In this document: positions 25,021 through 64,000 of the stretch, piece by piece | Layout of the letters: every line of letters begins with the position of its first letter | Numbering within the stretch: the stretch's first letter is position 1 | Origin: Thermodesulfobacteriota bacterium | GTDB lineage: Bacteria; Desulfobacterota_D; UBA1144; Nemesobacterales; Nemesobacteraceae | NCBI GenBank assembly: GCA_965116075.1 | Contig: OZ220467.1 | Span: 64,191-128,190, forward strand | Length of the DNA: 64,000 bases | Direction of reading: 5' to 3' | The notes under the pieces: model-generated | Seen by the model: only the letters and a program-made list of their open reading frames with translations | Databases searched by the model: none | What the model was told of the DNA's origin: nothing | Position numbers and translations under genes: made by a program

Positions 25021-26319
25021 TTAGTGCTCGCCGAAAACGGCGGCGAATATATAGTCTATATTTTTAAAATCTTCTTTTAGATTAAAAAATGAACTGACTT
25101 CTTCTTTGGAAAGAACACCCATTATTTCCGGGTCGCTTATGAGGGTCTCCTGAAAATCTTTTTGCTCCTCCCAGCAACGTAGGGCGTTTCTCTGCACAAG
25201 CGAGTAGGCATTTTCCCTTGAAATTCCTTTTCTTACAAGACCGAGAAGTACTTTCTGGGAAAAAACAAGCCCTCGTGTGATCCAGATGTTTTTCTCAAGA
25301 TTCTCTGGATAGACGCGTATCCCTTGGAGGAGAACGCATAACCTGTGAAGCATGAAATCAATTAAAATGGTCCCATCTGGACCTATGATTCTTTCCACAG
25401 AGGAATGGCTTATATCTCTTTCATGCCAGAGCGCTATGTTTTCAAGCGCGGCCACCGAATGGGACCTCACGATTCTTGAAAGTCCACAAAGGTTTTCAGA
25501 AAGTATAGGGTTTTTCTTATGAGGCATCGCAGAGGAGCCTTTCTGCCCACTTGAAAAAGGTTCCTCCATCTCCCTTACTTCCGTTCTCTGGTAGTGCCTT
25601 ATCTCCGTTGCGATTTTTTCTATTGATGCCGCTATAAGCGAAAGACAAAGAAAATACTGCGCGTAAACATCTCGTTGTATCACTTGCGTTGATATACCCG
25701 CGGGGCGAAGTCCGAGGAGCGAACACGCATGGCTTTCAACCTCAGGTGGAATATTAGCGTAGGTGCCAACAGCGCCTGACATCATCCCGACGCTTGCGCC
25801 CTCACATGCAACGGCCATTCTATCTCTGTTTCTTTTCATCTCGTCATACCAAAGCGCAAATACAAGTCCTAGGGTCCTAGGCTCCGCATGTATGCCGTGG
25901 GAACGTCCGATCATCGGGGTGTTTTTATACTGAAACGCCTTTTGGCGCAAAATTCCAAGTAACTTTGAAATCCCTTCGAGTATGAGTTCGCCTGACTGGC
26001 GAAGTTGTATGGAAAAAGCCGTGTCAAGAACATCAGACGACGTCATCCCGAGGTGAATAAACCTCGACATCTCACCAACGTTTTCCGCAACGCAGGTCAA
26101 AAATGCTAAAACGTCGTGCTTAAGCTCTTTTTCAAGTTCCTCTATTCTCTGGATGTTGAACGTCGCCTTTTTCTTTATTTCCAAAAGCGCGTCCTGTGGA
26201 ATTTCTCCTTTCTGCGCCCAAGCCTCGCAAACCGCAATTTCTACATCAAGCCAGACGCCATAGCGGTTCTCATCCGACCATATACGCGACATCTGTTCCC
26301 TTGAGTATCTTGGAATCAA
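25021..26319 (-). CDS. purB: Adenylosuccinate lyase
   Basis: 432 aa with a fumarate-lyase signature (GSSAMPHKKNP). Confidence 0.9.
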   Translation of the reverse strand: MIPRYSREQMSRIWSDENRYGVWLDVEIAVCEAWAQKGEIPQDALLEIKKKATFNIQRIEELEKELKHDVLAFLTCVAENVGEMSRFIHLGMTSSDVLDTAFSIQLRQSGELILEGISKLLGILRQKAFQYKNTPMIGRSHGIHAEPRTLGLVFALWYDEMKRNRDRMAVACEGASVGMMSGAVGTYANIPPEVESHACSLLGLRPAGISTQVIQRDVYAQYFLCLSLIAASIEKIATEIRHYQRTEVREMEEPFSSGQKGSSAMPHKKNPILSENLCGLSRIVRSHSVAALENIALWHERDISHSSVERIIGPDGTILIDFMLHRLCVLLQGIRVYPENLEKNIWITRGLVFSQKVLLGLVRKGISRENAYSLVQRNALRCWEEQKDFQETLISDPEIMGVLSKEEVSSFFNLKEDFKNIDYIFAAVFGEH

Positions 26320-27128
26320 ATCTCTATCACCTCACTAGGTTCGTTTCTGGGAGCTACCATCAGCGATACGTATCCACAGGCGCCGTTTCTGCGTAGAACG
26401 TCAAGAGAAACTTGGAGAGCCATTTCGGCAGTGTTATTTTTCGCGCTCAGATGAGCGAGCAAAACATGTTTTAATCCTTTGTGCATCACCTCTTCTAGAA
26501 GGGATGCGGATTGTTCATTCGACAGATGTCCATGACCGCCGCTTATTCTCTGCTTGAGATACGCGGGATAAGGACCGGAAAACAGCGCGTCTCTATTGTA
26601 ATTCGACTCAATCACAAGAACATCGCAGTTCTTAAGACTCTCAATGACAAGAGCGGTAGGTTTACCTATATCAGTTACTACGCCCACTTTAACCTGCCCA
26701 TCCGTAACAGTAAAACCCACGGGGTCAATAGCATCATGGGCTACTGCAAAAGGCGTTATCTGAAGATCTTTTATCTCAAACGCGCTCTGAGAGTCAAACT
26801 GCTTGATTACCTCCATTCCACTTTGGGTTTTCCTAGTCCCACCGTTGTATTCAGATTTTTTCGCTCGCTTTTTTCCTTCCCAAAAATCAACTGTTTCCTC
26901 AGACACGTAAACCGGCACCCTAGGCATCCTCCACACTCCTTTTGAGTGATCATCATGTTCATGGGAAAGGATCACGGCGTCAATATCATTGACCTCGCTA
27001 CCGATGCTTTGAAGATTTCGAGAAATCCGGCGCAGGCTTATCCCAGCATCTATCAGTATTTTGGAATGTCGTGATTCAAGGTAAAATGAATTGCCTGAAC
27101 TTCCACTTGCAAACGTACAAATTTTCAT
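26316..27128 (-). CDS. MBL-fold metallo-hydrolase
   Basis: HEHDDH (HxHxDH) motif. The start is uncertain (MELMKICTF region). Confidence 0.7.
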   Translation of the reverse strand: MKICTFASGSSGNSFYLESRHSKILIDAGISLRRISRNLQSIGSEVNDIDAVILSHEHDDHSKGVWRMPRVPVYVSEETVDFWEGKKRAKKSEYNGGTRKTQSGMEVIKQFDSQSAFEIKDLQITPFAVAHDAIDPVGFTVTDGQVKVGVVTDIGKPTALVIESLKNCDVLVIESNYNRDALFSGPYPAYLKQRISGGHGHLSNEQSASLLEEVMHKGLKHVLLAHLSAKNNTAEMALQVSLDVLRRNGACGYVSLMVAPRNEPSEVIEI

Positions 27129-27208
27129 AAGTTCCATCCATGTAAAAAACCTTGGAAAAATGGGCAATTATACCTGACTAAATAAAACCTGCGGTATCTC
27201 CACATAAG

Positions 27209-27502
27209 GAGGCATTTGCACTGTCCAAAATGTATATGCATATCAAGAGGTTTTAGAAGGACATCCGAATAATACAGATAATTTGACCGAGGAATTTAGC
27301 GGTAGTGACTGTGAATGGATTGTTGCGTCTAAAGGTTGATAACTGGACGGAAATCAGCGGCAAATTCCGGGAAAATCAAGAAATTTGACCGTCAAATTAC
27401 TCAAATACGAATCAGTACGAACTGAAACAGTGGTGAACATACGTTCATACGTCCTCATTACGTCAAAACCACTCCCCCAAAAAACCTACAGCGCAAATGC
27501 CC
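27209..27502 (+). mobile_element. MITE-like deletion derivative of the IS5-family element (left 55 bp plus right about 240 bp, no transposase)
   Basis: Begins GAGGCATTTGCACTGTCC... and ends ...ACAGCGCAAATGCC. The internal part aligns with 33225..33469. Confidence 0.7.
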
Positions 27503-27516
27503 TTTCTCGCCAGTCC

Positions 27517-27554
27517 TTGACTTTGTAAGGGGGGGGGGGGGGTAAACTCAAAAG
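27517..27554 (+). promoter_or_regulatory. Conserved promoter-like module TTGACT-TTGTAA-(G)14-TAAACTCAAAAG, with a homopolymeric G tract between the -35-like and -10-like hexamers; candidate phase-variable promoter
   Basis: G run at about 27529..27542. The same architecture recurs at 42976..43012 (G13) and, on the minus strand, at 62294..62335 (G19). Confidence 0.45.
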
Positions 27555-27642
27555 ACTGACTTAAGAATGAGGGTTTTATAGCAAGGTTTTGCCAGATAAA
27601 TATCCATTTATAAATGGAACAACTTATAAGGGAGGTTGTATT

Positions 27643-28279
27643 ATGAAGTTACGCAGTTTATTAGTGATGTTGTTACTGCTCACTGGAGCAGTTTTCTTTG
27701 TAGCTTGTGAGGGCGAGCGAGGGCCGGCAGGTCCGAAAGGCGACAAAGGCGACCCAGGAAAGGACGGTGCGAGAGGGCCAGCAGGAAAGGATGGTGCGAG
27801 AGGGCCGGCAGGCACGAAAGGTGATGACCTAACAGGTGGTGATCCTAGATGCGACCGCAGTAATGGGATAGATGTAGCCGGTGGCGGTTTTCTGATCCAA
27901 GGAACCGATGATGACGATGTTATTTGCGGTAATAATGCTCAAAACGAAATTAGAGCTCAAGACGGTGATGATGTTGTTTACGCCGGCGCCGGAATGGACA
28001 AACTAGTAGGTGGTGCTGGTGATGACACGCTTTATGGTGAAGCTGGGAATGATTTTTTCTTCGTTCTGAATGAAACCGGCACTAATAAATTGGTTGGTGG
28101 GGACGGGTGGGATATGTTAGTGTTCGCTTCTGATGATCCAAATAGGCACGACATTACTCTTCCTGACGGCCACTATGCTGTTAGTCTTGACAACTTACAG
28201 ACCGAAACCATAACCTTTGATCTTTCCTCGGGGAGTTTTGACGGTACTTCCTTTGAAACTGGAACATTTGCGTTTGAAG
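27643..28279 (+). pseudogene. Collagen-like/RTX-repeat lipoprotein paralog, fragment 1 of 3, interrupted by an IS66-family insertion
   Basis: SD AAGGGAGG plus ATG. Signal/lipobox MKLRSLLVMLLLLTGAVFFVAC. G-X-Y repeats GERGPAGPKGDKGDPGKDGARGPAGKDGARGPAGTKGDD. RTX nonapeptides GGAGDDTLYG. The reading frame continues at 31201 once the IS is removed. Confidence 0.75.
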
Positions 28280-28302
28280 GTAAGCGTTCGTTCAAGGGGT
28301 GT

Positions 28303-29196
28303 TTATAGGGGGTTTGAGCGATTGAGGATTTGTCTCCAATTCCTGTGAAGCGGTCGTAGCCAAATGTCCTTTTTGGGTTTATCGCATCGGTTGTAACGAT
28401 CGTAGCGGCCACGCCCCTGTGTAGTTCCAACGCGTATCCATCCAGAAGCCCGGTATACGGTGCCTGTATATGTCGGAATTTGTACAAACGTCTCAATAAG
28501 CACAGGTGTGAAGTTGTATCGTTGCTTCCAATCCTTGGGCAAGCGGCGACAGACTACCGAGAGAATGTGTGACCCAAGATTGGGTATCTGTATCCATGGA
28601 AGAATCAGGAATCTGGGGTTGTCGATAACCAACGGTAAATTCTTTTCACGTTGCTCGGATGTCCATCCTATGAAGGTGTCACGCGGCGCAAGTCTCCATG
28701 CGGCGGTGGAGAACCCTAGCATGGCCAGCGGCGAACCGTGGCGGTCGCGCACTGCGTAGCGCATCTGAGCCCCGACTAATGTCTTATAACCTAAGTAGTG
28801 ATAACGAGCTACAAACTCGTTCCATAGTTTGCCTTGCCTAGTGCCACTGACAACAGTGTGAACCTGTAGTGGACGGACTTCGTCAAGGGTCTTGGGAACC
28901 GGTAGCATAGGCGGTTCGGTGTCCACTCCAAAGACAATAGGCTTGGCTCGGGGCGACACTCGGGTGGGTGTCGGTAACTTGATGATGCCATCCCTATGCA
29001 TGGATAGCATGGTAACTCTGGCCGTCATATCCTTGAGTCCGCCATCGGGCTTGTACCACCCAATACGTCTGCAAAACTCTCTGGACAGAGCAGTCCGGTT
29101 GAGCCGCTCGGGCCCGGCTATCAAAGCGCGTAGCAGTTTCATCTCCGCAGTCGTGAACTCACGCCCGTAGTAGCGGCACTCAACCTCGTCGCTCAT
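28303..29196 (-). CDS. DUF4338-domain protein with an N-terminal putative winged-helix region, encoded inside the IS66-family element downstream of the transposase
   Basis: IGWTSEQREKNLPLVIDNPRFLILPWIQIPNLGSHILS...YRASGWIRVGTTQG. Its start overlaps the transposase stop by 4 nt. Confidence 0.75.
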   Translation of the reverse strand: MSDEVECRYYGREFTTAEMKLLRALIAGPERLNRTALSREFCRRIGWYKPDGGLKDMTARVTMLSMHRDGIIKLPTPTRVSPRAKPIVFGVDTEPPMLPVPKTLDEVRPLQVHTVVSGTRQGKLWNEFVARYHYLGYKTLVGAQMRYAVRDRHGSPLAMLGFSTAAWRLAPRDTFIGWTSEQREKNLPLVIDNPRFLILPWIQIPNLGSHILSVVCRRLPKDWKQRYNFTPVLIETFVQIPTYTGTVYRASGWIRVGTTQGRGRYDRYNRCDKPKKDIWLRPLHRNWRQILNRSNPL

Positions 29197-31079
29197 CTCT
29201 TGGCGCCAAAGTCACGCAAACGTTGCTCACTCATTGACCATGGCAACCAAGGCGATAGATCTTTTGGAGGACTCCTGCCATCTTCCGCGCAGGCTCTCAA
29301 CCATCCCTTCAGCCAACTAAGAACGTCAATGCCATTCTTTGCGAGCGTACCCAGCACCGTGTATAGAATGGCTGATGTTCTTGCGCCCTCTTCACTGTCA
29401 GATCCAAAACTTACTTTACGGGCGATGGCCAGCCAGCGTAGCGCTCTCTCCGCAATATTGTTATCCATGGGAACTTGGGGATGTTCAACGAACACGCTCA
29501 GCCCTTCACGATGATTCATAAGCGACTTAAGTGGCTTTCGCTCACGCGCATCTTCCGCTAACTCGGATAATTCACTCTCAGCTTTGCTGAACAATGCGTC
29601 GCACGCTTTTTTCAACTCTATCTGTATTCGTTCAAACTCTACAGTATTACCTGAGACGTAGTGATCACACCGCTGTTTGTTTAACTTATACATCTCTGCA
29701 ATGCGTTCTATCCATTGTTCATTCCATTGCTCAAGCTGCTCGTCTCCTGCAGCGCATTTTATAAAATCTCTTCGTACATGCGCCCAACAAAAACACAGCG
29801 TCACCTTCTTATTGAGTTCTTCGAGGAAATCCCGAACCATCTTCTTATAGGAACCGTGGCGGTCGCAGACCAAGAAAATACAATCAACGCTGTCAATGAA
29901 TAGGACCTTTGCCGCCTCAGAACTACGCCAACGGTGTATATTGAATAAGACAGAGTCTTTGCTCACAGATGTCCATAGCCAAGCGCGTTGAGAACCCCCC
30001 ACTTCCTTCAGTGACTGGATTCGCCAACTTGTCTCGTCTGCATGACGCAATCTATCTTCGTTTTGATGGGCGAGAATAGCGTCATAGAGAGTCTCGAACA
30101 GAGGCAGCAGGCGCTTTGCGCTGTCCGCTAGAGTCCCTGCCGAAATCTTAAACCCGTGGTCGCTAAAGCATTTCTCTATACTACGGTAGGGCCTCAGGTT
30201 CCAGTAGCGCTCGTATATCAATAGAGCCCAGACACTGGTCCCATATGGCGTATGTTCAAACAGCCGCGCCGGCGCTGGCGCAGTCACATAGAGCGGAGAT
30301 GACTCACAGTCGCATGACCTACGATAACGGAAGCGGTTAATCCTGCGCGTGTGCGCCTTAACCTTAATCTCTGATATCTTCGAGGTCCGCTTCCCATTTG
30401 CAACGTACCGCTCCCCACAACAAGAACAGGTAATCTCATCATCTGACGGATGCCACGACTCTTCTACCACCTCAATATCTGGTCGGGCTGTACGACCATG
30501 ACCAGGCGCCCCGGGCTGTTGTCCTCGTCTACGCCCCGAAGGTGAACTCTTCTGCTTCTCACTACGACGTCCGTACAACGAATTGGACAGAACCTTACGG
30601 TTAGAAAGCAGGTTCTTGACCTGCTTCTTCAGCTCTGCATTCTCATTCTTCAAGCTGCCAATCTCCATCCGCAACGATACAATCGTACTACGCTTGCGCC
30701 TATCTACTCCAACCTCGTCTAGCAATGCTCTAAGTCGTTGTACTTCTTTGTCCAACGATAAAGCACTTTTCGCCACACGACTGATACGCTTTACTTCCTC
30801 ATTTTTCGCGTCCAACTGAGTACGCGCTTTCTGGCAATACCTTTTATACCTCCCCGCCCAAGACCGTTGCCGAGTTACTTCATGTTCTAATTCCTGATAA
30901 TCATGTTCTAACTTCTGATGTTTATGTTTTAACTCCTGATAAGCCGCTAGCAACTCTTCGTACGAAAACTTACAGTCTAACGAAGCGCGTCCCGACGTAG
31001 CCGGCATGCAATTGATGCATCCAGCGTCATCTTTATCCAATAACCTGACAACCCCGATCTCTTTGTCGTGAACAATCAT
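29193..31079 (-). CDS. IS66-family transposase (TnpC-like)
   Basis: 628 aa with an N-terminal coiled coil, a CxxC zinc finger (ITCSCCGERY), and HADETSWRIQ, CWAHVRRDF and MDNNIAERALR motifs. Confidence 0.85.
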   Translation of the reverse strand: MIVHDKEIGVVRLLDKDDAGCINCMPATSGRASLDCKFSYEELLAAYQELKHKHQKLEHDYQELEHEVTRQRSWAGRYKRYCQKARTQLDAKNEEVKRISRVAKSALSLDKEVQRLRALLDEVGVDRRKRSTIVSLRMEIGSLKNENAELKKQVKNLLSNRKVLSNSLYGRRSEKQKSSPSGRRRGQQPGAPGHGRTARPDIEVVEESWHPSDDEITCSCCGERYVANGKRTSKISEIKVKAHTRRINRFRYRRSCDCESSPLYVTAPAPARLFEHTPYGTSVWALLIYERYWNLRPYRSIEKCFSDHGFKISAGTLADSAKRLLPLFETLYDAILAHQNEDRLRHADETSWRIQSLKEVGGSQRAWLWTSVSKDSVLFNIHRWRSSEAAKVLFIDSVDCIFLVCDRHGSYKKMVRDFLEELNKKVTLCFCWAHVRRDFIKCAAGDEQLEQWNEQWIERIAEMYKLNKQRCDHYVSGNTVEFERIQIELKKACDALFSKAESELSELAEDARERKPLKSLMNHREGLSVFVEHPQVPMDNNIAERALRWLAIARKVSFGSDSEEGARTSAILYTVLGTLAKNGIDVLSWLKGWLRACAEDGRSPPKDLSPWLPWSMSEQRLRDFGAKR

Positions 31080-31200
31080 ATGACCGATGATAACCGATCA
31101 ATTAAGGAGTGACCAGTCTAAATGCAAAAAAATATTTAAGACGGGATTAACGAACGATTAATCAAGCAAACACCCCTTGAACGAACGCTTACGTTTGAAG

Positions 31201-31472
31201 GCATTGAGGACCTTTTCGTAGGTTACGGAGATGACACGATTACCGGAAACGACGAAGACAACTACATTAGGGCGGAGGGAGGAAACAACACTATCAACGG
31301 AAAAGCAGGCGACGATTTAATCCTCGGTGGTGAAGGAGACGATACCATTAACGCAGGGGCTGGCGACGATGTTTTTGACGGATGGGGAGGCAGTGATGTT
31401 CTCACTGGAGGCGCGGGAGCGGATATCTTTATTATTCAATATTCTGCCTCGCCCTCTGTTGGGATTATTAAA
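31201..31472 (+). pseudogene. Collagen-like/RTX-repeat lipoprotein paralog, fragment 2 of 3 (between the IS66 and IS5 insertions)
   Basis: Translates in frame as GIEDLFVGYGDDTITGNDEDNYIRAEGGNNTINGKAGDDLILGGEGDDTINAGAGDDVFDGWGGSDVLTGGAGADIFIIQ..., collinear with residues about 245-330 of the intact paralog. Confidence 0.7.
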
Positions 31473-33469
31473 GAGGCATTTGCGCTGTCCAAAAGATGTA
31501 TGTATATCAAGGGTTTTTAGAAGGGGTAAAAAACTTTTTACCCCAAAAATACCCCAAAAAAGCCCTAAAATCGGCTAATGTAAGCCAAAAACCACAAATT
31601 TCACCCCACATAAACCAGTTGCCGATTTCTCCCTGAAAAACTTGGGAAAGAGATAAATAACTTGCTGATATTACTTGCTTTACATTCTATATCAGTTATT
31701 ATTATTTCTAACATTCACACATTCTCTCTATAAGGAGCAAACAGTTGCTACAAAAAAAGTATTTACCATTCTCTTGGGAACAAATTGATGAGATTTCAGA
31801 CCTCAAACGTCTTGAGTTGGTTTTGGATGCTTTGCCTGATGAAGATATCATTAGGGCTTTGAAAGCTATGCGCAAGAACGGGCGTAATGAGTATCCGGTA
31901 GAACCAATGTGGAGGGCGACGATTGCTGGCGTAGTGTTTCAGCACGAATCCATAGAATCACTGATACGGGAACTGAACCGTAATTCTGAACTACTTAATA
32001 GATGTGGATTCTGTCCCATTCCCATACAACATATTGACAAGTACAGTCTTGAGCAGGATGAAAACGGCGGGAGACCTAAAGTTGTGGTTAAACAATTTCC
32101 TATCTACAGTACGGCGCCTAGCAGTCACAATTTCTCTCGGTTTCTATCAAACGTAGCGAAGTTGGAGCAACGCGACGGTCTGATTTCGAAAATGATGGAT
32201 AGAATGGGAGGAGAGTTGAGAGAATCGCTTCCGGATTTTGGGAAGCATCTAGGATATGACGGTAAGTCTATAGAGAGTAATTCCACAGGGAGAAAGAGCA
32301 ATAAGACAGGAGAGACATCCGATCCTGATGCGGACTGGGGAGTACATACTACGTCTGGGTTTAACTCTGCTACAGGCAAGGCATGGAAAAGCGTAAAGAG
32401 ATGGTTTGGTTACAAGTTGCATGTAATTGCCGATACCAAGTATGAGATACCGGTTGCGATGAGTCTTACAAAGGCATCTGTATCAGAATATAAGGAGTTG
32501 AATCGGATGATAGACAAGTTGTTTGCGCAGAACCCTGAGTTGGTGGAGCGATGCGAATATTTCAGCGCAGACAAGGGTCTTGACAGTGGGTCATTGAAGA
32601 AGAAGTTTTGGAACGAATATGGAACTGACCCTATAATTGGTATCCGAGAGATGTGGAGGGTGGAGTTGGAGAATCAGAACTATATTGCTGGGCAAAAGAT
32701 TATGCGGCCTTTGAGAGAAGATATTAACAACATATTCTACACAGAGAAGGGCGAGGTTTGGTGTCGTTGTCCTATAACCAAGGTAGAAAGTAAGCTGGTG
32801 GGTTGGGGATATGAAGAGGAGCGAGGTACTTTGAAGTTTCGTTGTCCTGCGGCAGCGCATAACCTGAATTGCGTAGGTAGGGAGAAGTGTCACAAAAATG
32901 CGGGTCGTAAGAACAGTGAATATGGCTTATCCATACGAGTTCCTTTGGACAAGGACCCTCGTATTTTTACCCCGACTCCGTATGGTTCAGTAACTTGGGA
33001 GCGGGAGTATAAGCTTAGGAATTCTATAGAACGTATAAACTCAAGGGTTGACAATAGTTTTAAGTTAGAGAGGCATTTTATCAGAGGCAAGGCTAAAATG
33101 ACTGCTCGTACAGGCTTAGCGTTGAGTGTGATGATGGCGTTAGCCATTGGACACATAAAGGCTGGAAGGGCTGATAAGATGAGGTCCCTTGTTTCTGGGT
33201 GTGCTCCTCGGGCTGGATAGGGTTTTTCTCCGAATACTACAGATAATTTGACCAGAGGAATTTAGCGGTAGTGGCCGTGAATGTATAGTTGCGTCTAAAG
33301 GCTGATAATTGGGCGAAAATCAGCATCATATCCTGCGAAAATCAAGGAATCTGACCGTCAGATTGTTCAAATACGAATCAGTACGAACTGAGACAGTGCT
33401 GAACATGCCTTCATACGTCCTCATTACGTCTAAAATCACTCTCAAAAACCTTACAGCGCAAATGCCTCA
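31473..33469 (+). mobile_element. IS5/IS1182-family insertion sequence (2.0 kb). Perfect 16-bp terminal inverted repeats GAGGCATTTGCGCTGT. Flanking direct repeat ATTAAA.
   Basis: Terminal repeats at 31473..31488 and 33454..33469. Excision restores the reading frame of the disrupted gene. It is the source of the MITE family. Confidence 0.8.
31745..33220 (+). CDS. IS5/IS1182-family DDE transposase (DUF772-like N-terminal domain)
   Basis: 491 aa with NGRNEYPVEPMWRATIAGVVFQHESIESLIRELNRNSELLNRCGF and C-terminal ERHFIRGKAKMTARTGLALSVMMALAIGHIKAGRAD. TTG start. Confidence 0.8.
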   Translation: MLQKKYLPFSWEQIDEISDLKRLELVLDALPDEDIIRALKAMRKNGRNEYPVEPMWRATIAGVVFQHESIESLIRELNRNSELLNRCGFCPIPIQHIDKYSLEQDENGGRPKVVVKQFPIYSTAPSSHNFSRFLSNVAKLEQRDGLISKMMDRMGGELRESLPDFGKHLGYDGKSIESNSTGRKSNKTGETSDPDADWGVHTTSGFNSATGKAWKSVKRWFGYKLHVIADTKYEIPVAMSLTKASVSEYKELNRMIDKLFAQNPELVERCEYFSADKGLDSGSLKKKFWNEYGTDPIIGIREMWRVELENQNYIAGQKIMRPLREDINNIFYTEKGEVWCRCPITKVESKLVGWGYEEERGTLKFRCPAAAHNLNCVGREKCHKNAGRKNSEYGLSIRVPLDKDPRIFTPTPYGSVTWEREYKLRNSIERINSRVDNSFKLERHFIRGKAKMTARTGLALSVMMALAIGHIKAGRADKMRSLVSGCAPRAG

Positions 33470-33475
33470 TTAAAG

Positions 33476-33726
33476 ACTTTGACTTGACAGAAGACAAAAT
33501 CTATTTCAGAGATTTTCCAACGAAAGCAGGGACTAATAGAGATCTATCCGTTACAAGCGGTCGGATTTCGGTTGGAACGACACCGTTTGTTGAAATACAG
33601 GTGAACAATACAGCAGACAACGACAAAGCGAATAGTATAAAAAATGACTCAACAAGATATAGGTTTGTAGAAGCAGATTTTGATACCGATACAAAAAAAA
33701 GAGTTTACACTTTTACAGACAACTAA
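33476..33726 (+). pseudogene. Collagen-like/RTX-repeat lipoprotein paralog, fragment 3 of 3 (C-terminal)
   Basis: DFDLTEDKIYFRDFP...RYRFVEADFDTDTKKRVYTFTDN* parallels the C-terminus of the intact paralog (DFDLTEDMIYFRNF...YRFVNSSFGPKTRTYTFTDN*). Confidence 0.7.
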
Positions 33727-41992: not shown

Positions 41993-42267
41993 TTCATTAT
42001 CTCCTGAGCAAATTTAAGGCGGAAATTGTACTGACTATTAGATACAAAGTCAAAAAACTCGCGAACCATGCAAGGAGATTGATTACAAGGAATAAGAGGT
42101 CTTAACCACCAAACAAAGACGCAGGAGAAAATTGCTATAGTTCTTGTTGTCTTTTGTCTATTGATTTCTATACTTGTCAAAATGTTTTATGTTTTAAGTA
42201 CTCTTTTATTTCCTTAGTAGTTACTGTCTTGATCATAATTGGGGACAAATAAATACTTTAGTCTGAA

Positions 42268-42662: not shown

Positions 42663-42958
42663 GACACTAAAGGCTGGAAGGGCTGACAAAATGAGGTCAC
42701 TTGTTTCTGAGTGTCTTAATCGGGCTCCGAATAATACAGATAATTTGACCAGAGGAATTTAGCGGCAGTGACCGTGAATGGGTTGTTGCGTCCAAAGGCT
42801 GATAATTATGCGGAAATCAACGGCAAATTGCGGGAAAATCAAAAAATCTGCCCATCAGATTGCTCAAATACGAATCAGTACGAACTGAAACAGTGTTGAA
42901 CATGCGTTCATACGTCCTCGTCTAAAACCACTCCCAAAAGCCCTACAGCGCAAATGCC
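42663..42958 (+). mobile_element. Remnant of the IS5-family element right end (transposase 3' tail plus right terminal region), abutting the promoter of the intact collagen/RTX gene
   Basis: ...IKAGRADKMRSLVSECLNRA-like tail, then sequence that aligns with 33225..33469 and ends ACAGCGCAAATGCC. Confidence 0.65.
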
Positions 42959-42975
42959 TTCTTTCTCGCTAGTTC

Positions 42976-43012
42976 TTGACTTTGTGAGGGGGGGGGGGGG
43001 TAAACTCAAAAG
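42976..43012 (+). promoter_or_regulatory. Conserved promoter-like module TTGACT-TTGTGA-(G)13-TAAACTCAAAAG; candidate phase-variable promoter of the intact collagen/RTX gene
   Basis: G run at about 42988..43000. The about 130 bp running from this module to the ATG are near-identical to 27517..27645. Confidence 0.45.
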
Positions 43013-43100
43013 ACTAATTTAAGAATGAGGGTTCTATAACAAGGTTTTGCCAGATAAATGGTCATTTATAAATGGAACAACTTATAAGGGAGGTTGTAAT

Positions 43101-44306
43101 ATGAAGTTAGGTAGTTTATTAGTGATGTTGTTACTGCTTACTGGAACAGTTTTCTTTGTAGCTTGTGAAGGGGAAAGAGGTCCAGCGGGCGAAAAAGGTG
43201 ACAAGGGAGACACAGGTGAGAAAGGTGAGAAAGGCGACCCAGGGAAAGACGGAATACCTGGGCCAGCGGGGTCAGATGGGAGAGATGGAGCAGATGGAGG
43301 AGATGGAGCAGATGGTACTCCATTTGGCGATCCGAGATGCGATGTTATCAATGGAATACAGGGGCTATTAGGAGTTGTTAATGGCGCAAGCATTGCTGAG
43401 GGTGCCATCTCTGGGACTGCTGATGACGATGTTATTTGTGGAACTCGGGTTTTTAACTATATACGAGGGCAAGGCGGTGATGATATTGTTTACGGTGGAG
43501 ATGGTGGTGACATACTAGTAGGCGGTGCTGGTGATGATACGCTTTACGGTGAAGGTGGAGATGACCATTTTTTCCTTAGAGCTGAAAGTGGTGCTAATAA
43601 ACTGGTAGGCGGTGAGGGTAAGGACGCTGTTTACCTCGGTGGCCCTCCAACTTTTGGGTTACTTAATCTTGTTACGAACAATATAGGCTTTTTTTGGGGA
43701 ACAGGCTCAATAGTGGTTTCTGCTAATGTAACCTTAGATCTTTCTTCGGGGACTTTAGATGGTGCTGCTAATTCTATCAACGGAAATGGAACGTTTACAT
43801 TTGAAGGCATTGAGGATATTCGGGGCGGTAGTGGTGCTGAAACGCTTATCGGAAACGAGTTAAATAATTTCATCATTGGAAATGGCGGAAACGATACTAT
43901 TAACGGGAAAGCGGGAGATGATACTCTTCTCAGTGGTAACGAAAACGATACTATTGACGGCGGGGCGGGAGATGATGTTATTTACGGGAATCAGGGTGCC
44001 GACACTTTTACCGGTGGCGCTGGCTCTGACATTTTCCTAATTCGTAAAGGCTTTGGGACTAAGGTTATTGCAGATTTTGATTTGACGGAAGACATGATCT
44101 ATTTCAGAAATTTTACAGCAGGCGGGGAAACAATAACCGTTGGGAGCGGTAAGTTGACTGTCGGCGGAACTGAGGTTGTGATACATGGTGCGAACGGTCA
44201 ACCGGATAACACAAAGGCGGGAAAGATAAACAGCGAAAATAAATATAGGTTTGTAAATTCATCGTTTGGTCCAAAGACACGAACCTACACTTTTACAGAC
44301 AACTAA
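43101..44306 (+). CDS. Secreted lipoprotein with collagen-like G-X-Y repeats and RTX (hemolysin-type calcium-binding) nonapeptide repeats; intact paralog
   Basis: SD GGGAGG 7 nt upstream. Lipobox FFVAC. 17 G-X-Y triplets (GERGPAGEKGDKGDTGEKGEKGDPGKDGIPGPAGSDGRDGADGGDGADGTP). Several GGxGxDxUx repeats (GGAGDDTLY, GGAGDDVIY, GGAGSDIFL). Confidence 0.8.
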   Translation: MKLGSLLVMLLLLTGTVFFVACEGERGPAGEKGDKGDTGEKGEKGDPGKDGIPGPAGSDGRDGADGGDGADGTPFGDPRCDVINGIQGLLGVVNGASIAEGAISGTADDDVICGTRVFNYIRGQGGDDIVYGGDGGDILVGGAGDDTLYGEGGDDHFFLRAESGANKLVGGEGKDAVYLGGPPTFGLLNLVTNNIGFFWGTGSIVVSANVTLDLSSGTLDGAANSINGNGTFTFEGIEDIRGGSGAETLIGNELNNFIIGNGGNDTINGKAGDDTLLSGNENDTIDGGAGDDVIYGNQGADTFTGGAGSDIFLIRKGFGTKVIADFDLTEDMIYFRNFTAGGETITVGSGKLTVGGTEVVIHGANGQPDNTKAGKINSENKYRFVNSSFGPKTRTYTFTDN

Positions 44307-44694: not shown

Positions 44695-44765
44695 GAGAGC
44701 GGTTTTTTACTCCTTCTAAAACCCCTTGATATACATACACCCGCCCATTAAACAGCCGTAAAAGA
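44695..44765 (-). mobile_element. Degenerate remnant of an IS5-family/MITE left end
   Basis: GTTTTTTACTCCTTCTAAAACCCCTTGATATACATACAC aligns with 5753..5795 (AGTTTTTTACCCTTTCTAAAAACCCTTGATATGCATACAT), but the terminal repeat is degenerate. Confidence 0.35.
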
Positions 44766-46482: not shown

Positions 46483-47102
46483 GAGGCATTTGCACTGTCC
46501 AAGATTTATATGCATATCAAGAGGTTTTAGAAGGGGGTAAAAAACTTTTTACCCCACCCCAAAAATCAGTTGCTGATTTTTCCCTGAAAGACCCAAAAAG
46601 TACATCTGACTACGACCGCTTCACAGGAACTGAAGACAAATCCTTAACCGCTCAACCCTCTATAAACACCCCCTGAACAAAAATTTACGCAAGTTCAGAT
46701 TAGAAAAGCACTTTATCAGATGTAAGGCTGAAATGAGTGTTCGTACACGCTTAGAGTTGTGTGTGATGATAGTGCTAGCGATTGGACACATAAAGGCCGG
46801 AAGGGCTGATAATATGAGGCCACTTGTTTCTGGGTGTCTTCCTAGGGCTGGATAGAGTTTTTCTCCGAATAATACAGATAATTTGACCAGAGAAATTTAG
46901 CGGCATTGACCATGAATGGATTGTTGCGTTCAAAGGCTGGTAATTGGGCAGAAATCAGCAGCAAATTGCGGGAAAATCAAAAAATCTGCTCGTCAGATTA
47001 TCAAATACGAATAGTACGAACTGAAACAGTGGTGAACATACGTTCATTACGTTCTCATTAACGTCAAAACCACACCCAAAAACCATACCGCGCAGATGCC
47101 TC
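46483..47102 (+). mobile_element. Composite IS remnant: IS5-family left end, a short reverse-complemented IS66-like end fragment (about 46605..46680), the transposase 3' tail (about 46690..46855), and the IS5-family right end
   Basis: Begins GAGGCATTTGCACTGTCC and ends ACCGCGCAGATGCCTC. The internal ...LEKHFIRCKAEMSVRTRLELCVMIVLAIGHIKAGRADNMRPLVSGCLPRAG* parallels the transposase C-terminus at 33070..33220. Confidence 0.65.
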
Positions 47103-47115: not shown

Positions 47116-47150
47116 CTTGACACCTCCTTTTTTAGTGGTATCATTGGACG
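47116..47150 (+). promoter_or_regulatory. Putative sigma-70 promoter (TTGACA, 16-nt spacer, TATCAT) directly after the IS remnant, driving the riboswitch-btuB unit
   Basis: Hexamers read directly: ttgaca-cctccttttttagtgg-tatcat. Confidence 0.35.
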
Positions 47151-47154
47151 CTAG

Positions 47155-47345
47155 ATTCAGGTTAAGGGAATCGGGTGAAAATCCCGGACTGTTCCCGCAG
47201 CCGTTATAAGGTTTTTCCTCACATTAACTCAGAGAAATTCCAATGCTCTGGGGGTCACTGGCCGACGAATATTGGCTGGGAAGGCTTACGGAGGAACCCG
47301 CTTTTATAGCACGCCTTTAAGTCGGAAGACCTGCCTGTATCAATC
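47155..47345 (+). promoter_or_regulatory. Cobalamin (AdoCbl) riboswitch
   Basis: Conserved core GGTTAAGGGAATCGGGTGAAAATCCCGGACTGTTCCCGCAGCCGTA, a GTCACTGGCC element, and the B12 box AGTCGGAAGACCTGCC. Lies upstream of a BtuB-like receptor. Confidence 0.7.
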
Positions 47346-47501
47346 CTGGTAGATGCCTCGGGAGTTAGGCTGATGGGTTCTGAAAGGCTTCTTTATCAAT
47401 CGGACCACACTTGAGAAAAAGAAACTTTTAGACATGCGTTCTCTGTACGCTGAACCGACGCTTCTTCCAGAAAACACTTAAGTTCAAGGAGGAACTTTAC
47501 T

Positions 47502-49436
47502 ATGAAAAATTTCATGTTTCTTTGCGTCTGCACAGTTTTTCTGTCAATTTTGCTTATTTCTTATGCGAGTCAAGCGGAGGAAAATCAGCTTGAAAAAGTA
47601 CTGGTCACGGCAACTAAAATCCCAGTTCCCCAAGATCAACTTGGAGCTTCAACAAAGGTAATAACCCGGGAGGAAATAGATAGAAGCGGAAAAAAGGATT
47701 TGGGATCGGTACTGTCCGCGGTGACCGGTTTTCAGATTACGCGAACTGGGAGCAGAGGAAGTTTAACATCGCTCTTTGTCAGGGGAACTAACAGCAACTT
47801 TAATCTAGTCATGATAAACGGCGTCCAAGTCAATAGCTCAGGAGGTCTCTTTGATTTTGGTCAAATCTCAACCGAAAACATAGAAAGGATAGAGATAGTA
47901 AAAGGATCTCACTCATCTCTTTATGGTTCGGATGCGGTAGCCTCAGTAATAAATATAATAACGAAAAAAAGCCAAGACAAACTGACCCTTGACTCCTCAG
48001 CCGCTTTGGGAGGACGGACGGAAGGGGGCGTTATGCAGGAATATTTCGCTAGCCTTTCCGGTGGAGAGGGTGACTACGGATTCTTTTTATCCTATGGAAG
48101 AATAGATGACGGAGGAATACTGGACATCAATAACGATTATAGAAACAACAATTTCACCGCAAACTTCAATGCGGATTTTTCTGAAAATGCCTCATTCGGT
48201 CTCTTCTCCGTGTATAAAGATTCAGAATTTGAGTTCCCAACTGCTGGATCTGGAGATAAGTTTGATGCCTATCTAGACCCAGACAGCCAAACAGAAGCAA
48301 AGTTGTTTGTAATAGGGTCTGATCTGGATTTTTCGTTTATAAATGGATGGAAAAACTCTGTTAAATTCGGATACTCAAAAAATGACAACAAAAACTACGA
48401 TGGACCTAAACCTGATGGCTTAGACGATGTGGAAACAGTAACAGAGTCCGATGATAAGCGAATCTCTGCCGAATACGTCTCCTCTTTTGAGTTTGATTTT
48501 GAGTCTATCTCAAGCATTACTTCCGCTGGGTTTGAATATGAAAAAGAGAGTTATGAATCATCTGAGGGTGTTGATAAGTCAAGAACTAACTACGCATTTT
48601 TCGCGCAAAAACATCTAGGGTTTTTTGACAGATTCTTTGTTACCACAGGAATACGTTTAGATGATAATCAACGGTTCGGCCAGCAATGGAGTCCAAGCGC
48701 GTTTGCGTTGTTTGAGTTGCTAGAAGGGACAAAGATTAGAGCTGGAGTTGGAAAAGGGATAAAAGAACCAAGCTTCTCGCAGAATTATAGTACCGCTTTT
48801 ACAACCCCAAATCCTGACCTCGCTCCTGAGGAATCCTTGAATATTGAAGCTGGAATTGATCAATCTTTTTACCAAGGCATGGGAGAAATCAAAATCACTT
48901 TCTTTCAAAACAAATTTAAAAACCTGATAGCTTACAGTTTTGAAGAGTTTGCAAACGGTACGAGTTACGACAATGTAAACAAATCTGAAGCAAAAGGCGT
49001 TGAAGTAGAATTTCTTTTGAACCCAATAGAAATATTGACGCTTTCAGGAGGTTATACATACCTTGACTCTGAGGTTACAGATGACGGAGGACTAAGTTCT
49101 GAGTCTTTTGCGGAAGGTAAAAAACTACTGCGCCGACCCGATCACTCTTTTTACGCAGGAGCTAACTTTAGTGTAGATGGATTTAACGTAAACGCCTTAG
49201 GAAAATACGTAGGTAGCCGTGATGACATGAACTGGAGTGAATTTGCGAGAGTAGAGAATGACTCATATTTCACTATGGATCTAGCCGCCTCTTATGAACT
49301 CCCAACCAATCAACTGGCGCAAAGCATAAAGATTTTCGCAAGAGCGGAGAACTTGTTTAACAACGATTATGAGGATGTTTTCGGATTTTCATCCCCGGGG
49401 CTAAGCGTTATTGGTGGAATCTCCTTGCGTATGTAA
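47502..49436 (+). CDS. TonB-dependent receptor, vitamin B12 transporter BtuB-like
   Basis: Signal peptide, TonB-box-like VLVTATK and a plug domain. 644 aa beta-barrel ending in the aromatic residue (...GGISLRM). Confidence 0.8.
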   Translation: MKNFMFLCVCTVFLSILLISYASQAEENQLEKVLVTATKIPVPQDQLGASTKVITREEIDRSGKKDLGSVLSAVTGFQITRTGSRGSLTSLFVRGTNSNFNLVMINGVQVNSSGGLFDFGQISTENIERIEIVKGSHSSLYGSDAVASVINIITKKSQDKLTLDSSAALGGRTEGGVMQEYFASLSGGEGDYGFFLSYGRIDDGGILDINNDYRNNNFTANFNADFSENASFGLFSVYKDSEFEFPTAGSGDKFDAYLDPDSQTEAKLFVIGSDLDFSFINGWKNSVKFGYSKNDNKNYDGPKPDGLDDVETVTESDDKRISAEYVSSFEFDFESISSITSAGFEYEKESYESSEGVDKSRTNYAFFAQKHLGFFDRFFVTTGIRLDDNQRFGQQWSPSAFALFELLEGTKIRAGVGKGIKEPSFSQNYSTAFTTPNPDLAPEESLNIEAGIDQSFYQGMGEIKITFFQNKFKNLIAYSFEEFANGTSYDNVNKSEAKGVEVEFLLNPIEILTLSGGYTYLDSEVTDDGGLSSESFAEGKKLLRRPDHSFYAGANFSVDGFNVNALGKYVGSRDDMNWSEFARVENDSYFTMDLAASYELPTNQLAQSIKIFARAENLFNNDYEDVFGFSSPGLSVIGGISLRM

Positions 49437-61039: not shown

Positions 61040-61644
61040 GGGAGGATATTTTACACCAAAAAAACAGATGCGAGGAAAAGGGGTATGAGATGCACTTGTT
61101 TTATTGGAGCTCTGGAAAAGTGCCTTCTCTGATTAGGTTCAGAAAAAACGCTCCGCTTGACCTTTCATACACACTTAGTCCTGCTCCCGGAAACTTAAAA
61201 TTCTCTTTTCTAGCTTTTCTACATAGGCGCAGACGAAGATGGGAACTTCTCAGGGGAAATAGCCGGCACTTTTTCAGAACCCAAGTTCATAAAGTGGACG
61301 ATAACGTAGTGGGTCCGGTAATCGCTCCTAACGCAAAAAAACCTTGCTGGCGATAATAAAAAGCCCCACCGGTCAAAACCTGCAGGGCCGTGGATTCCAC
61401 ACCGAGATTATTTTATTCGGAATTCTGATATAACTGACACGTAAGAAGTTTATGTTTTTCCCAAATAACTATCAGGGAGTGAACCATTAACGCTGTCTAC
61501 TTTCCATTTTCTTTTTGCTACTATCTGGTCAGCCAACTGTTATTTATCTTTCCATCCTTTTTTATAATAAAGGCTTTGAGCGTTTTTCCTTTGTTATCAG
61601 TCGCCCATTAAACTGCGCCTATTTCAGTACTATGCAAAAAATTT

Positions 61645-62214
61645 TTACCTTTTTTCACAAACTGAACTGGTAGTTATGCGCATGGTGCTTTCTACTTCTC
61701 CGTTTTCATAAGCCACCAACACATCTCCAGCCGAAGCAACCAATTGACCTGCTTGGTTTATTCTGTAAGGGGAACACACTACGCTATAGGGAATAGCATC
61801 GAATCGGGCGCAGAGCATATTGTCAGATGCACGAACAACCCAGTGCCCGGCAATAGCAGGGGGTTTTGTGCCCACTCTGCATTCATCCCATTGTTCTGCA
61901 GCCCATGCAGGTTGCTCTATGTGGGGGACATAAAAAGTTCCATCAGAATTATAGGTTTCGACATTTGTGGATCCGTCAGAATCTTCGCAATCCCACGTTC
62001 CTACTAGTTCTGTAGGGTGCGTACCACTAGGCAAAGGTTCCACCACTGCAACTGCAGCGCAGTCATACTCTCCAATTGGTAGTTCTTCCAGTACATCACC
62101 ATTATCATCGCCACCATTACCACCGCCAGCTGGTATTTCTACACCATCATCACCTCCGCCACCACAAGCAACAGAAACAAGTGCCAAGCCTATAATCAAA
62201 ACAATCTTTTTCAT
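61645..62214 (-). CDS. Lipoprotein (189 aa) with a Gly/Asp-rich linker, preceded by the same poly-G promoter module as the collagen/RTX genes
   Basis: SD AGGAGG plus ATG. Lipobox LVSVAC, then GGGGDDGVEIPAGGGNGGDDNGD. Confidence 0.6.
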   Translation of the reverse strand: MKKIVLIIGLALVSVACGGGGDDGVEIPAGGGNGGDDNGDVLEELPIGEYDCAAVAVVEPLPSGTHPTELVGTWDCEDSDGSTNVETYNSDGTFYVPHIEQPAWAAEQWDECRVGTKPPAIAGHWVVRASDNMLCARFDAIPYSVVCSPYRINQAGQLVASAGDVLVAYENGEVESTMRITTSSVCEKR

Positions 62215-62293
62215 TTCAAATCCTCCTAGTTTAATGGGCGTAGGAAAACCTTGCTAGACATCCTTCACCTCATATATCATTATATCATTACAC

Positions 62294-62335
62294 CTCTGAG
62301 CTTACCCCCCCCCCCCCCCCCCCTACAAAGTCAAT
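62294..62335 (-). promoter_or_regulatory. Conserved promoter-like module on the minus strand: TTGACT-TTGTA-(G)19-TAAGCTCAGAG
   Basis: Poly-C run of 19 at about 62305..62323 on the plus strand. Downstream (minus strand) are a TATAAT-like element and a conserved AGCAAGGTTTTCC block, as at 27575 and 43040. Confidence 0.45.
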
Positions 62336-62750
62336 AGTGAGGTGTTTGCAATACTCAATAGGCGTTTTTTATAGCGCAGAGAAAATGAAGATGTGGGGAT
62401 ACTGTCGAATGGCTATGCGTATAAATTAAGCCGTGAGGGATTTAGAGAGGTAATCTTTATCCCGTAGCACTTTAAGATCTTTGGAAGTCAGATCATTTGG
62501 GGCTAAAAATCACAAATTCACCTCAAGTCAGAATCAGTCGAGAGATATTTGTAGCGTAACTATTCTAGATTAATCATGAATTTATTATCTACGCTACAAA
62601 GAAGTAAACCCATGGTAGTTCCGCCATCATAAAAAGAAACTAACATCAAGAATCCCTACAACGTAAATAGCTTTTCCAATGGTTCTTAGGAAAATCAAGC
62701 CTGAAATCGGGTAAAGTAGTTAAAGTGAATAAAGATTTAAGGAAAAAACA

Positions 62751-64000
62751 ATGAAACTGACCTCACGCGCAAGAGACAAAAAATACATAGGGAAAGGCAC
62801 TCTGCCTAATGGTCCACTCAACGATACAGATAAATGGCTACCAATGACCAAGTATCTTGAGACAGGCGCCCAATCCTATCCAGAGAAAACTATGTTCAAA
62901 ATGGGAGACGTTAACGGAAACATTGTCCAAAGTTATACCTATGCGGAAACCAATGCTTGGACCAATAAGGTAGCAAACGGTCTTGTGGGAGAGTTTGGTA
63001 TAAAAAAGGGAGATAAGGTCGGTATGTACATGCTTAACTGCTCAGAGTACGTAATATCAATTCTGGCCGCTCATAAGGCGGGGGCAGTACAAGTCCCCGT
63101 AAATAAGGATGAAAAAGGCGAAAGACTTGCCTACGTAATAAACTACTCGGAGATGCGTGTGTTGATAGTGGATCAGCAAAGCCTTCGTTATGTTAAAGAA
63201 ATATCTGACAAACTTAAAAACCTAGAAGTGATTTTCCTTGTGTCTCAAGAGGGTTCCGGTGATTTGAATGGAATAAGAACTCTTCCCTTCTCGGTTTTCG
63301 ATACTCAGTCCTCAGATAATTTAGGAGTTAACGTCTCTATCGCTGATAAAGAAAGGTGCATGTTCACTTCCGGTACCACGGGTATGCCCAAGGGGGTAAT
63401 TCGTGACCATGGAGGAGTGATAATGACAGTGCGCTCTTTTATCCAACAGCAGGGACTTAGAAGCGAAGACATTCTGATGACGGTTCTTTCTCTCGGTCAC
63501 GCAAACGCTCAAGTCATGTGCCTTTTCGTGTCAATCGCAGTTGGAAGCACTGCAGTTTTCTTTCCAAGATTTTCAGCTTCTAACTTCTGGAAATGGGCGG
63601 CAGGTTGTGGGGCTACTGGCGCTAACATGTTAGGTGCCGTGCCTGAGTACATATGGTCCTCACCTGTTTCGGATTGGGACAAAAAACACAGTATAAGGAT
63701 GATGCTCTCGGGACCTGCTCCGAAAAAACTTCGCGAATTCGAGGAAAGGTTCAATACAAAAATAGTTGAGGGGTACGGTTCAACGGAGATGGGTATGGTG
63801 CTTTGGAAAGACCCTGAAGATCAAGAGCTCGGTTCTTGTGGCTTTCCCGTGCAAGGGTACCATCTGGAACTAAGAGACCCGATCAATACTGACATGATAA
63901 TAGAAAAACGGTGGAATGTAACCGCCTCATCAGCCCCTGCTGAAGATGAAAAGGGGCTTCTTTTCATAAAACCTCTTATACCGCACACTACTCTTGATGA
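62751..64000 (+). CDS. AMP-dependent synthetase/ligase (acyl-CoA synthetase family), 3' partial at the window edge
   Basis: MKLTSRARDKKYIGKG... with the AMP-binding motif TSGTTGMPKGV and GYGSTEMG. The frame stays open to the window end. It is absent from the ORF track, presumably because it is unterminated. Confidence 0.75.
   Translation, partial: MKLTSRARDKKYIGKGTLPNGPLNDTDKWLPMTKYLETGAQSYPEKTMFKMGDVNGNIVQSYTYAETNAWTNKVANGLVGEFGIKKGDKVGMYMLNCSEYVISILAAHKAGAVQVPVNKDEKGERLAYVINYSEMRVLIVDQQSLRYVKEISDKLKNLEVIFLVSQEGSGDLNGIRTLPFSVFDTQSSDNLGVNVSIADKERCMFTSGTTGMPKGVIRDHGGVIMTVRSFIQQQGLRSEDILMTVLSLGHANAQVMCLFVSIAVGSTAVFFPRFSASNFWKWAAGCGATGANMLGAVPEYIWSSPVSDWDKKHSIRMMLSGPAPKKLREFEERFNTKIVEGYGSTEMGMVLWKDPEDQELGSCGFPVQGYHLELRDPINTDMIIEKRWNVTASSAPAEDEKGLLFIKPLIPHTTLD

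Follow-up and report, generated by a model that had tools for sequence, protein, structure and literature searches.

A poly-G tract between putative -35 and -10 hexamers of an orphan lipoprotein gene and of a collagen/RTX lipoprotein family: a candidate slippage-switched promoter

Why is a lipoprotein gene that is unrelated to collagen-like proteins preceded by the same kind of guanine run as a family of collagen-like lipoprotein genes? The question is raised by a stretch of 64,000 nucleotides, hereafter the window, from a Thermodesulfobacteriota bacterium (contig OZ220467.1, positions 64,191 to 128,190), in which a minus-strand gene for a 189-aa lipoprotein and two plus-strand genes for collagen/RTX lipoproteins, here called colA and colB, have a poly-G module upstream of their coding regions. 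The original prediction, made from this DNA alone, took the module as the sign of a small regulon. Our analysis leads to another reading: the 42-bp feature in front of the lipoprotein gene would be a sigma-70-type promoter core that is switched by slippage of its G tract, with each locus switching independently and not as part of a regulon. We put the probability of this reading at roughly 60%.

Read directly on the minus strand, the feature (62334..62294) has the order TTGACT-TTGTA-G19-TAAGCT-CAGAG. The -35-like hexamer TTGACT (62329..62334), which is invariant across the 12 copies with an intact 5' flank, is followed by TTGTA and by a tract of 19 G on the sense strand (62305..62323), and the -10-like hexamer TAAGCT (62299..62304; TAAACT, TAAAAT or TAGAAT in other copies) abuts this tract. 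Farther downstream on the same strand lie the leader block AGCAAGGTTTTCC (62243..62255), which is common to the collagen-gene leaders in the form A[A/G]CAAG[G/A]TTTT[G/A]CC, the ribosome-binding site AGGAGG (62222-62227) and the ATG start codon (62214). The module is, in other words, present where the original prediction had placed it. In a related strain (ENA sample ERZ24894574), which is 98.0% identical to the window over 12.4 kb, the tract of the same gene has 15 G.

Is the resemblance between the copies more than chance? The window holds three runs of ten or more G, at 27529-27542 (G14), 42988-43000 (G13) and 62305-62323 (G19), where about 0.03 would be expected by chance. The 12 nt 5' of the lipoprotein tract match the collagen-gene copies at 11 of 12 positions (background frequency in the window, 3e-5), the 12 nt 3' of it match at 9 of 12 (background, 2e-3), all three mismatches being A>G, and the 10-mer GCAAGGTTTT is seen again within 50 nt of the lipoprotein tract (background, at most 1.6e-3). 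When each flank alone was searched against the whole window with nhmmer, the lipoprotein matches were not significant (E = 1.9 and 7.6); we scored the flank similarity instead by a test conditional on the tract, and, taken jointly in this way, it is far above chance. If indels are permitted, an additional common island, ATGAGG, can be aligned between the lipoprotein and collagen leaders. It should be mentioned that one portion of the match between copies is less specific than it appears, because the promoter of rplM (42025..42053, minus strand), an ordinary promoter with a 17-nt spacer, also carries the 11-mer TTGACTTTGTA found in the module. An artefact of assembly or of poly-G sequencing was considered as the source of the tract and was rejected, because four independent assemblies all show the tract, with its flanks conserved.

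The genes that share the module belong to a large family. The products of colA (27643..33726, plus strand) and colB (43101..44306, plus strand; intact, 401 aa) have the signal peptide of a lipoprotein and carry both collagen Gly-X-Y and RTX nonapeptide repeats. In colA, the promoter and leader (27517..27593, plus strand) comprise TTGACT at 27517-27522, G14 at 27529-27542, TAAACT at 27543-27548 and the block AGCAAGGTTTTGCC at 27580-27593, and those of colB (42976..43051, plus strand) comprise TTGACT at 42976-42981, G13 at 42988-43000, TAAACT at 43001-43006 and the block AACAAGGTTTTGCC at 43038-43051. A search with the colB protein found 35 paralogs besides colB on the 2.39-Mb contig (2,386,527 bp), i.e., at least 36 genes, with 43-62% identity to colB. 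The related strain added about ten paralogs to these, and a sister species (a circular chromosome of 1,980,752 bp, from two samples) added 12. The N-termini of the family are near-invariant (MKLRNLLVMLLLLTGAVLFVAC followed by EGERGPAG, with the signal peptide and lipobox) and the leaders are ~85-95% identical, and the mature parts are divergent. The tract stands upstream of all 11 family genes or remnants that were read, eight in this species, including those broken by insertion sequences (ISs), and three in the sister species; this count covers the copies with readable upstream DNA, the other ~30 paralogs on the 2.39-Mb contig lying outside it. In two more paralogs on that contig, the leader with its block is visible through mis-called start codons. 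The set is not small, as had been thought, since the same cassette precedes every inspected member of a family that counts 36 paralogs or more in this genome, and the expected conservation of the module in related genomes was found in both the related strain and the sister species.

The arrangement around the tract is highly regular. TTGACT is found 5-7 nt before the tract in 12 of the 13 module copies from the two species, the thirteenth having an IS in place of its 5' flank, and TA[A/G][A/G][A/C]T follows the tract directly in 12 of the 13, the exception having an IS in place of its 3' flank. In this second hexamer T1, A2 and T6 are invariant, and it always starts with the first base past the tract. 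In every copy with both flanks intact, the tract would accordingly occupy the space between a -35 and a -10 element, if the two hexamers are assigned correctly. A downstream AAGAAT was considered as the -10 of the family and rejected, because it is not conserved among the paralogs, others of which have AAGAAA or AAGCAG. The predicted spacers are 18-20 nt in the collagen genes of this species (G12-14), 15 nt in those of the sister species (G9), and, in front of the lipoprotein gene, 24 nt in the window strain (G19) and 20 nt in the related strain (G15). The reference housekeeping promoter, that of rplM, reads TTGACT-17 nt-TACAAT, and a spacing of 17 nt is likewise seen in front of hrcA and other genes. 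A promoter pattern scan that accepted spacers of 16-18 nt called the rplM promoter, and the module copies of the window at their current lengths were not called.

How could such an arrangement work as a switch? In the mechanism that we propose, the -35 hexamer TTGACT and the -10-like TAAGCT would be set apart by TTGTA and a G homopolymer; since the tract is the spacer, the gain or loss of G alters the distance between the hexamers, and slipped-strand mispairing that adds or drops G would turn each gene up or down alone. The lipoprotein module would have diverged from the promoter and leader common to the dispersed collagen/RTX lipoprotein family, and the orphan lipoprotein gene would have acquired this cassette by recombination. 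The anatomy of the module, its conservation, the size of the family and the difference in tract length between the strains are observed; we infer from the sequence that the hexamers form a promoter, that the tract slips within populations and that its length affects expression. The following observations are consistent with this proposal: (i) the tracts are uninterrupted runs of G9 to G19, in the range (about 8 or more) at which a homopolymer is regarded as hypermutable, homopolymers of nine or more being hypermutable in all bacteria studied (PMC5953494); (ii) the spacers of 18-20 nt and 15 nt are each one to three slippage steps from 17 nt and bracket this optimum; (iii) tract lengths of 12, 13 and 14 occur side by side among near-identical cassettes of one genome; (iv) over the 1.72 kb from 61040 to 62760, the two strains differ by four G in the tract (G19 versus G15, the sole indel) and by one synonymous single-nucleotide polymorphism, i.e., the lipoprotein tract has mutated faster than its surroundings, the background divergence of the strains being 2% over 12.4 kb around the locus; and (v) the tract has been kept at the positional ortholog of colA, which adjoins a Lactamase_B gene and has G9 in the sister species. 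Because the GltX proteins of the two species are 83% identical, the persistence of the tract at this ortholog across the species split points to selection for an uninterrupted tract. A large family with near-invariant signal peptides and divergent mature parts is, besides, a setting typical of variable surface antigens. Simple-sequence repeats in promoters are, moreover, a standard mechanism of phase variation in Neisseria (PMC5953494).

Several points weigh against this proposal. In Mycoplasma agalactiae, a homopolymer lies beside the -10 of the vpma genes without a role in their variation (PMC2268961). All of our tract lengths come from long-read consensus assemblies and are approximate above ~12, and the difference between G19 and G15 rests on two such assemblies, which are prone to homopolymer errors. 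At the lipoprotein locus itself, TAAGCT agrees with the -10 consensus at only three of six positions, the tract is three to seven slippage steps off functional spacing, and a perfect extended -10, TGATATAAT, lies 14 nt downstream. The optimal spacer of 17 nt is not found in any of the 13 observed promoters (three have 18 nt); at colA the two strains agree in G14 despite 8 differences in the leader; and the three loci of the sister species have exactly G9 in both samples, which resembles constraint rather than free slippage. The comparison of tract lengths between strains, which the original prediction had proposed, gave a difference at the lipoprotein gene and none at colA, and the two samples of the sister species did not differ at its three loci.

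The last three of these points are what would be expected if the G tract were a static element, that is, a part of the promoter that does not switch and serves for structure or protein binding, with a length that is species-specific and kept by purifying selection; examples would be an unusual spacer geometry, a G-quadruplex on the non-template strand or a binding site. The minimum of G15 that a three-tetrad quadruplex needs can also be counted in favor of such an element. On the contrary, the coexistence of 12, 13 and 14 among near-identical cassettes in one genome, the 15 versus 19 at a single locus, the hypermutability of homopolymers of nine or more and the 17-nt spacing of ordinary promoters in this genome do not fit a fixed length, and we consider a static element unlikely. 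The slippage-switched promoter is the reading that we carry forward.

Could the module have been brought by an IS? In five collagen-gene copies, the -35 is preceded at a distance of 13-15 nt by a solo right end of an IS, ending in ...ACAGCGCAAATGCC; in the window, these remnants are found at 27262..27503 (plus strand), ~13-15 nt upstream of the colA -35, and at 42725-42961, before colB. It could be supposed from this that the module is an outward promoter carried on, or made by, the IS end. The terminus of this IS is set by an intact copy with its target-site duplication (31475-33468; inverted repeats GGCATTTGCGCTGT, 8-bp duplication ATTAAAGA), and it stops short of the segment TTCTCGC...TTGACT; the module is therefore not IS sequence. 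In addition, no IS end accompanies the module before the lipoprotein gene, before P0019 in the related strain or in any of the three sister-species copies. When the region 62215-62760 was compared with the rest of the window and with the related loci, similarity was limited to the tract and ~12 nt on either side, with no IS end, so that an IS-borne promoter is effectively refuted for the lipoprotein copy and is very improbable for the family as a whole. On this subject the original prediction was right, both in seeing no IS end beside the lipoprotein copy and in regarding the module as a reused cis-acting device rather than as part of an IS-borne duplication.

Several further observations concern the ISs of these loci. 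In the window strain, colA is a pseudogene, split by an IS66-type element (28281-31182) and by the intact IS at 31475-33468; the gene is intact (386 aa) in the related strain. At the position of colB, the related strain has a different region with an N6-methyltransferase gene. An IS4-like element occupies 7526-9967 of the window (594-aa transposase, ends CAGGGC.../...GTCCTG, 11-bp target duplication TCTACAAGCCC), and the same element is found inside the poly-G tracts of two family promoters of the related strain (L015, 20799-21137; L016, 1-1468). One of these loci reads 5' flank-G13-IS and the other IS-G12-3' flank, as would be expected if the duplicated target were a 10-11-bp G run, and two of the three IS4-like insertions seen are in tracts.

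Because the module is shared by unrelated genes, a common regulator also has to be considered. A transcription factor or an RNA-binding factor might read the AGCAAGGTTTT block of the leader, or the G tract itself, and so co-regulate the collagen/RTX genes and the lipoprotein gene. The AGCAAGGTTTT block is conserved among the paralogs, and recognizable relatives of it occur in two of the three sister-species leaders (GCAAGATTCTGCC and GCAGGATTTAGCC) as well as upstream of the unrelated lipoprotein gene. The collagen leaders also contain a 16-nt palindrome, TCCATTTATAAATGGA, perfect or near-perfect, at 27603-27618 and 43061-43076, which in its perfect form is operator-like; from its sequence, either an operator or a leader hairpin would be conceivable. 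Within this species the paralogs conserve the palindrome, which neither the lipoprotein copy nor the sister-species copies have. Its absence from the lipoprotein copy speaks against a shared regulator, and so do four further observations: the third sister-species copy has no block; the exact 11-mer is also met within a coding sequence (281-291) and at a further intergenic site (61338-61348); no candidate factor was found; and a regulon would leave unexplained why the homopolymer is placed exactly between the two hexamers.

The position of the block is informative as well. The original prediction had the block downstream of the lipoprotein tract, where it is indeed present, but its spacing is not that of the collagen genes (49 nt past the tract versus 37 nt). 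Measured from the putative -10, the block lies in the transcribed leader at 32 nt in the collagen genes, at 44 nt in the lipoprotein gene and at 22-32 nt in those two sister-species copies in which it occurs, and its distance to the ATG is also variable. Such variable distances are not the behavior of a fixed operator. A common RNA structure was rejected as the reason for the block: the consensus of the collagen-leader RNAs is weak (covariation term, -0.91), with one helix in which the block is paired with the 5' end of the transcript, and the lipoprotein leader folds no better than shuffled sequences (z = 0.11). A search of Rfam gave no match at the module. We judge a shared-factor regulon to be improbable. 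The placement of the tract exactly between -35 and -10 points rather to independent stochastic slippage, and the term "regulon" is probably a misnomer.

What, then, is the lipoprotein gene itself (61645..62214, minus strand)? Its 189-aa product has a signal peptide, a lipobox (LVSVAC), a Gly/Asp-rich linker and six Cys in the mature part. Among 5.8 billion proteins searched, its sole relative is an identical copy in the related strain; in Pfam it matches no family, and its predicted structure (mean pLDDT, 42) is below what can be used for a fold search. BLASTP against the collagen/RTX proteins (colB) gave compositional Gly/Asp-rich matches only, none of them significant. The lipoprotein is thus, as the original prediction stated, not a member of the collagen/RTX family, and the promoter cassette is the sole part that they have in common. 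In the sister species, the syntenic site lacks this gene; an RTX gene in the opposite orientation adjoins gltX there.

A narrower explanation can be offered for the lipoprotein copy alone. The gene may once have taken the family cassette and may now be transcribed from TGATATAAT, in which case its tract would be a relic that has drifted to 15-19 without selection on length. A local tandem duplication of an 8-nt unit, TAATGATA x2 (62275..62290, minus strand, read directly), has created the perfect extended -10 TGATATAAT (62287-62279, minus strand), a possible promoter independent of the tract. The duplication has no counterpart in any collagen-gene copy, which have TTAAGAAT, AAGAAA or AAGCAG at this position. 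Of all copies, that of the lipoprotein gene also has the longest tract, the worst spacer (24 or 20 nt) and the weakest -10; together with TGATATAAT downstream, this means that it may be a tract-independent relic, and the difference in tract length between the strains is as expected of an unconstrained long homopolymer. At G19 or G15 the prediction for the tract-spaced promoter is very low activity or none; any expression in that state would come from TGATATAAT, and the copy may have lost its dependence on the tract. The main objections to this view are that the tract is uninterrupted in both strains, where an unconstrained run of G15-19 would be expected to collapse or to gain interruptions, and that the -35 and the 12 nt past the tract remain recognizably conserved; the promoter scan, moreover, needs a -35 and hence gives no score for TGATATAAT. 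A relic seems to us possible but doubtful. It is compatible with the slippage-switched promoter as the best explanation for the collagen genes, and differs from it only on whether the lipoprotein copy still switches.

If the orphan gene received the cassette by recombination, where does the cassette end? The homology to the family leader stops at AGCAAGGTTTTCC, 2 nt before a 12-nt sequence, CGCCCATTAAAC, which forms a perfect inverted pair around the gene. The left copy (62229..62240, minus strand) starts 2 nt past the end of the leader block, the right copy (61602..61613, plus strand) lies 31 nt beyond the stop codon, and the pair flanks the ribosome-binding site and the coding sequence on both sides. 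Three exact copies of CGCCCATTAAAC occur in the window, where ~0.3 would be expected even with one mismatch allowed; the third (44742-44753, plus strand) is downstream of colB, and a copy in the related strain (L016, 9498-9509) is upstream of another family promoter. The copies are confined to intergenic DNA near family and lipoprotein genes, and their flanks are otherwise unrelated. CGCCCATTAAAC could be a recombination site or boundary, a binding site or a cassette boundary.

Traces of exchange between cassettes are also seen in the family. When colA and its surroundings (26300-28270) were compared with the corresponding locus of the related strain (L014), 8 of the 11 differences fell within 75 nt of the leader (27550-27624), with ~0.1% divergence elsewhere. 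Because the differences are bunched in this way, they look like the signature of gene conversion between paralogous cassettes, the tract having G14 all the same. At the lipoprotein locus, the strains are near-identical (window 61040-62760 versus L001) despite the 2% divergence in the surrounding 12 kb, and this near-identity may reflect a recent exchange or a sweep.

Are there precedents for such a system? The closest that we found is the vlp family of Mycoplasma hyorhinis, in which, as it is summarized in PMC2268961 (from Citti and Wise 1995), each gene has a homopolymer in its -35/-10 spacer that, by its length, decides between ON and OFF, independently of the other loci. As far as that summary describes them, the vlp genes are, like those described here, a multigene family for surface lipoproteins in which the 5' ends (promoter, leader, signal peptide and lipobox) are conserved, whereas the mature regions contain repeats and diverge. 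Within the same limits, the differences are that the vlp tract is poly-A in a mollicute, whereas here it is poly-G in a Gram-negative-type, Dadabacteria-related host; that the vlp genes are clustered, whereas the ~36 genes here are dispersed over the chromosome; that the mature part here combines a collagen triple-helix repeat with an RTX beta-roll; and that one cassette here heads an unrelated orphan gene. Switching was demonstrated for Vlp, whereas here we infer it from the sequence. The main Vlp-like features, i.e., many paralogs, a conserved promoter, leader and signal peptide, divergent mature regions and a private tract-bearing promoter wherever it was read, are all found in this family. 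It is conceivable, at somewhat less than even odds, that the lineage runs a genome-wide Vlp-like contingency system in which private poly-G switches are combined with a gene-converted cassette that captures unrelated genes and with an IS that targets the tract.

Other known switches share single features with the module. In Neisseria meningitidis, porA and opc reportedly have a poly-G/C tract of ~9-14 nt between or overlapping the -35 and -10, and expression goes stepwise from high to absent as the tract changes by one or two bases. The likeness is in the poly-G/C tract in the -35/-10 spacer of a surface protein gene; the difference is that porA and opc are single-copy genes in which ON spacers of 16-17 nt are commonly seen, whereas here a family shares the cassette and none of its members is at 17 nt. 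The fim2 and fim3 genes of Bordetella pertussis are said to have ~13-15 nt of poly-C in the promoters of paralogous surface-structure genes, the length of which decides expression; unlike the present case, in which there is a plain -35 hexamer, that tract spaces the site of the activator BvgA from the -10. A collagen-like (Gly-X-Y) surface protein, SclB/Scl2 of Streptococcus pyogenes, is also reported to be phase-variable through a simple-sequence repeat, but that repeat is a CAAAA pentanucleotide in the coding region and acts on translation, in a single gene for an LPXTG-anchored protein of a Gram-positive bacterium. Slippage switches in promoters are textbook knowledge in host-adapted pathogens (Neisseria, Haemophilus, Bordetella and Mycoplasma); for uncultured phyla, environmental or symbiotic, hardly any have been described to our knowledge.

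As a device, the module is of a known kind; what is new is the phylum and the gene family in which it appears, on a scale far beyond that seen in the original prediction, together with its capture by one unrelated gene. If our reading is true, this would be the first repeat-driven phase-variable gene system for the phylum, outside the usual settings of pathogens and commensals. Stochastic variation of the surface through at least 36 private promoters would suggest strong and fluctuating selection by a host, by phages or by grazers. The lipoprotein copy would show that a switch cassette can pass between genes, a route by which the set of phase-variable genes grows. For those who annotate metagenome-assembled genomes (MAGs) from long reads, the practical consequence would be to treat such tracts as biology and not as assembly error.

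How far does the module extend beyond these genomes? The GltX of the window strain, 83% identical to that of the sister species, is 65-69% identical to those of MAGs named Candidatus Dadabacteria, which gives an approximate placement with Candidatus Dadabacteria as the closest named relatives. A literature search found no paper tying Dadabacteria to phase variation, and Dadabacteria and collagen were mentioned together in passing only (one such paper was checked). Among 185,579 species-representative genomes, a set that includes neither the source genome nor a close relative bearing the module, the pattern TTGACTTTGT-N1-2-G8 had 12 matches, all in unrelated taxa and none with a TAARCTCA flank. 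In the JGI metagenomes, the strict pattern had no match and a relaxed pattern had two, both unrelated.

These scans also met promoters of the type TTGACT-N-G9-15-TATAAT-like in unrelated bacteria (Bacilli, Sphaerochaetaceae, Bdellovibrionales and others), at loci L003, L004, L006, L008 and L010 of the species-representative genomes and L023 and L024 of the JGI metagenomes, one of which heads a lipoprotein gene. Promoters with poly-G spacers seem to be widespread in uncultured taxa.

Two minor observations from the neighborhood of the family may be added. A cobalamin riboswitch (Rfam RF00174, 68 bits) lies at 47142-47352 of the window, upstream of a TonB-dependent receptor gene (47502-49436), and a further remnant of the same IS end as at colA and colB (46863-47100) is found just upstream of it. 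In the region that the related strain has in place of colB, a 202-aa gene has a G11/C11 tract (L014, 20253-20263) 20 nt before its ATG; this may be a contingency locus as well, without relation to the module.

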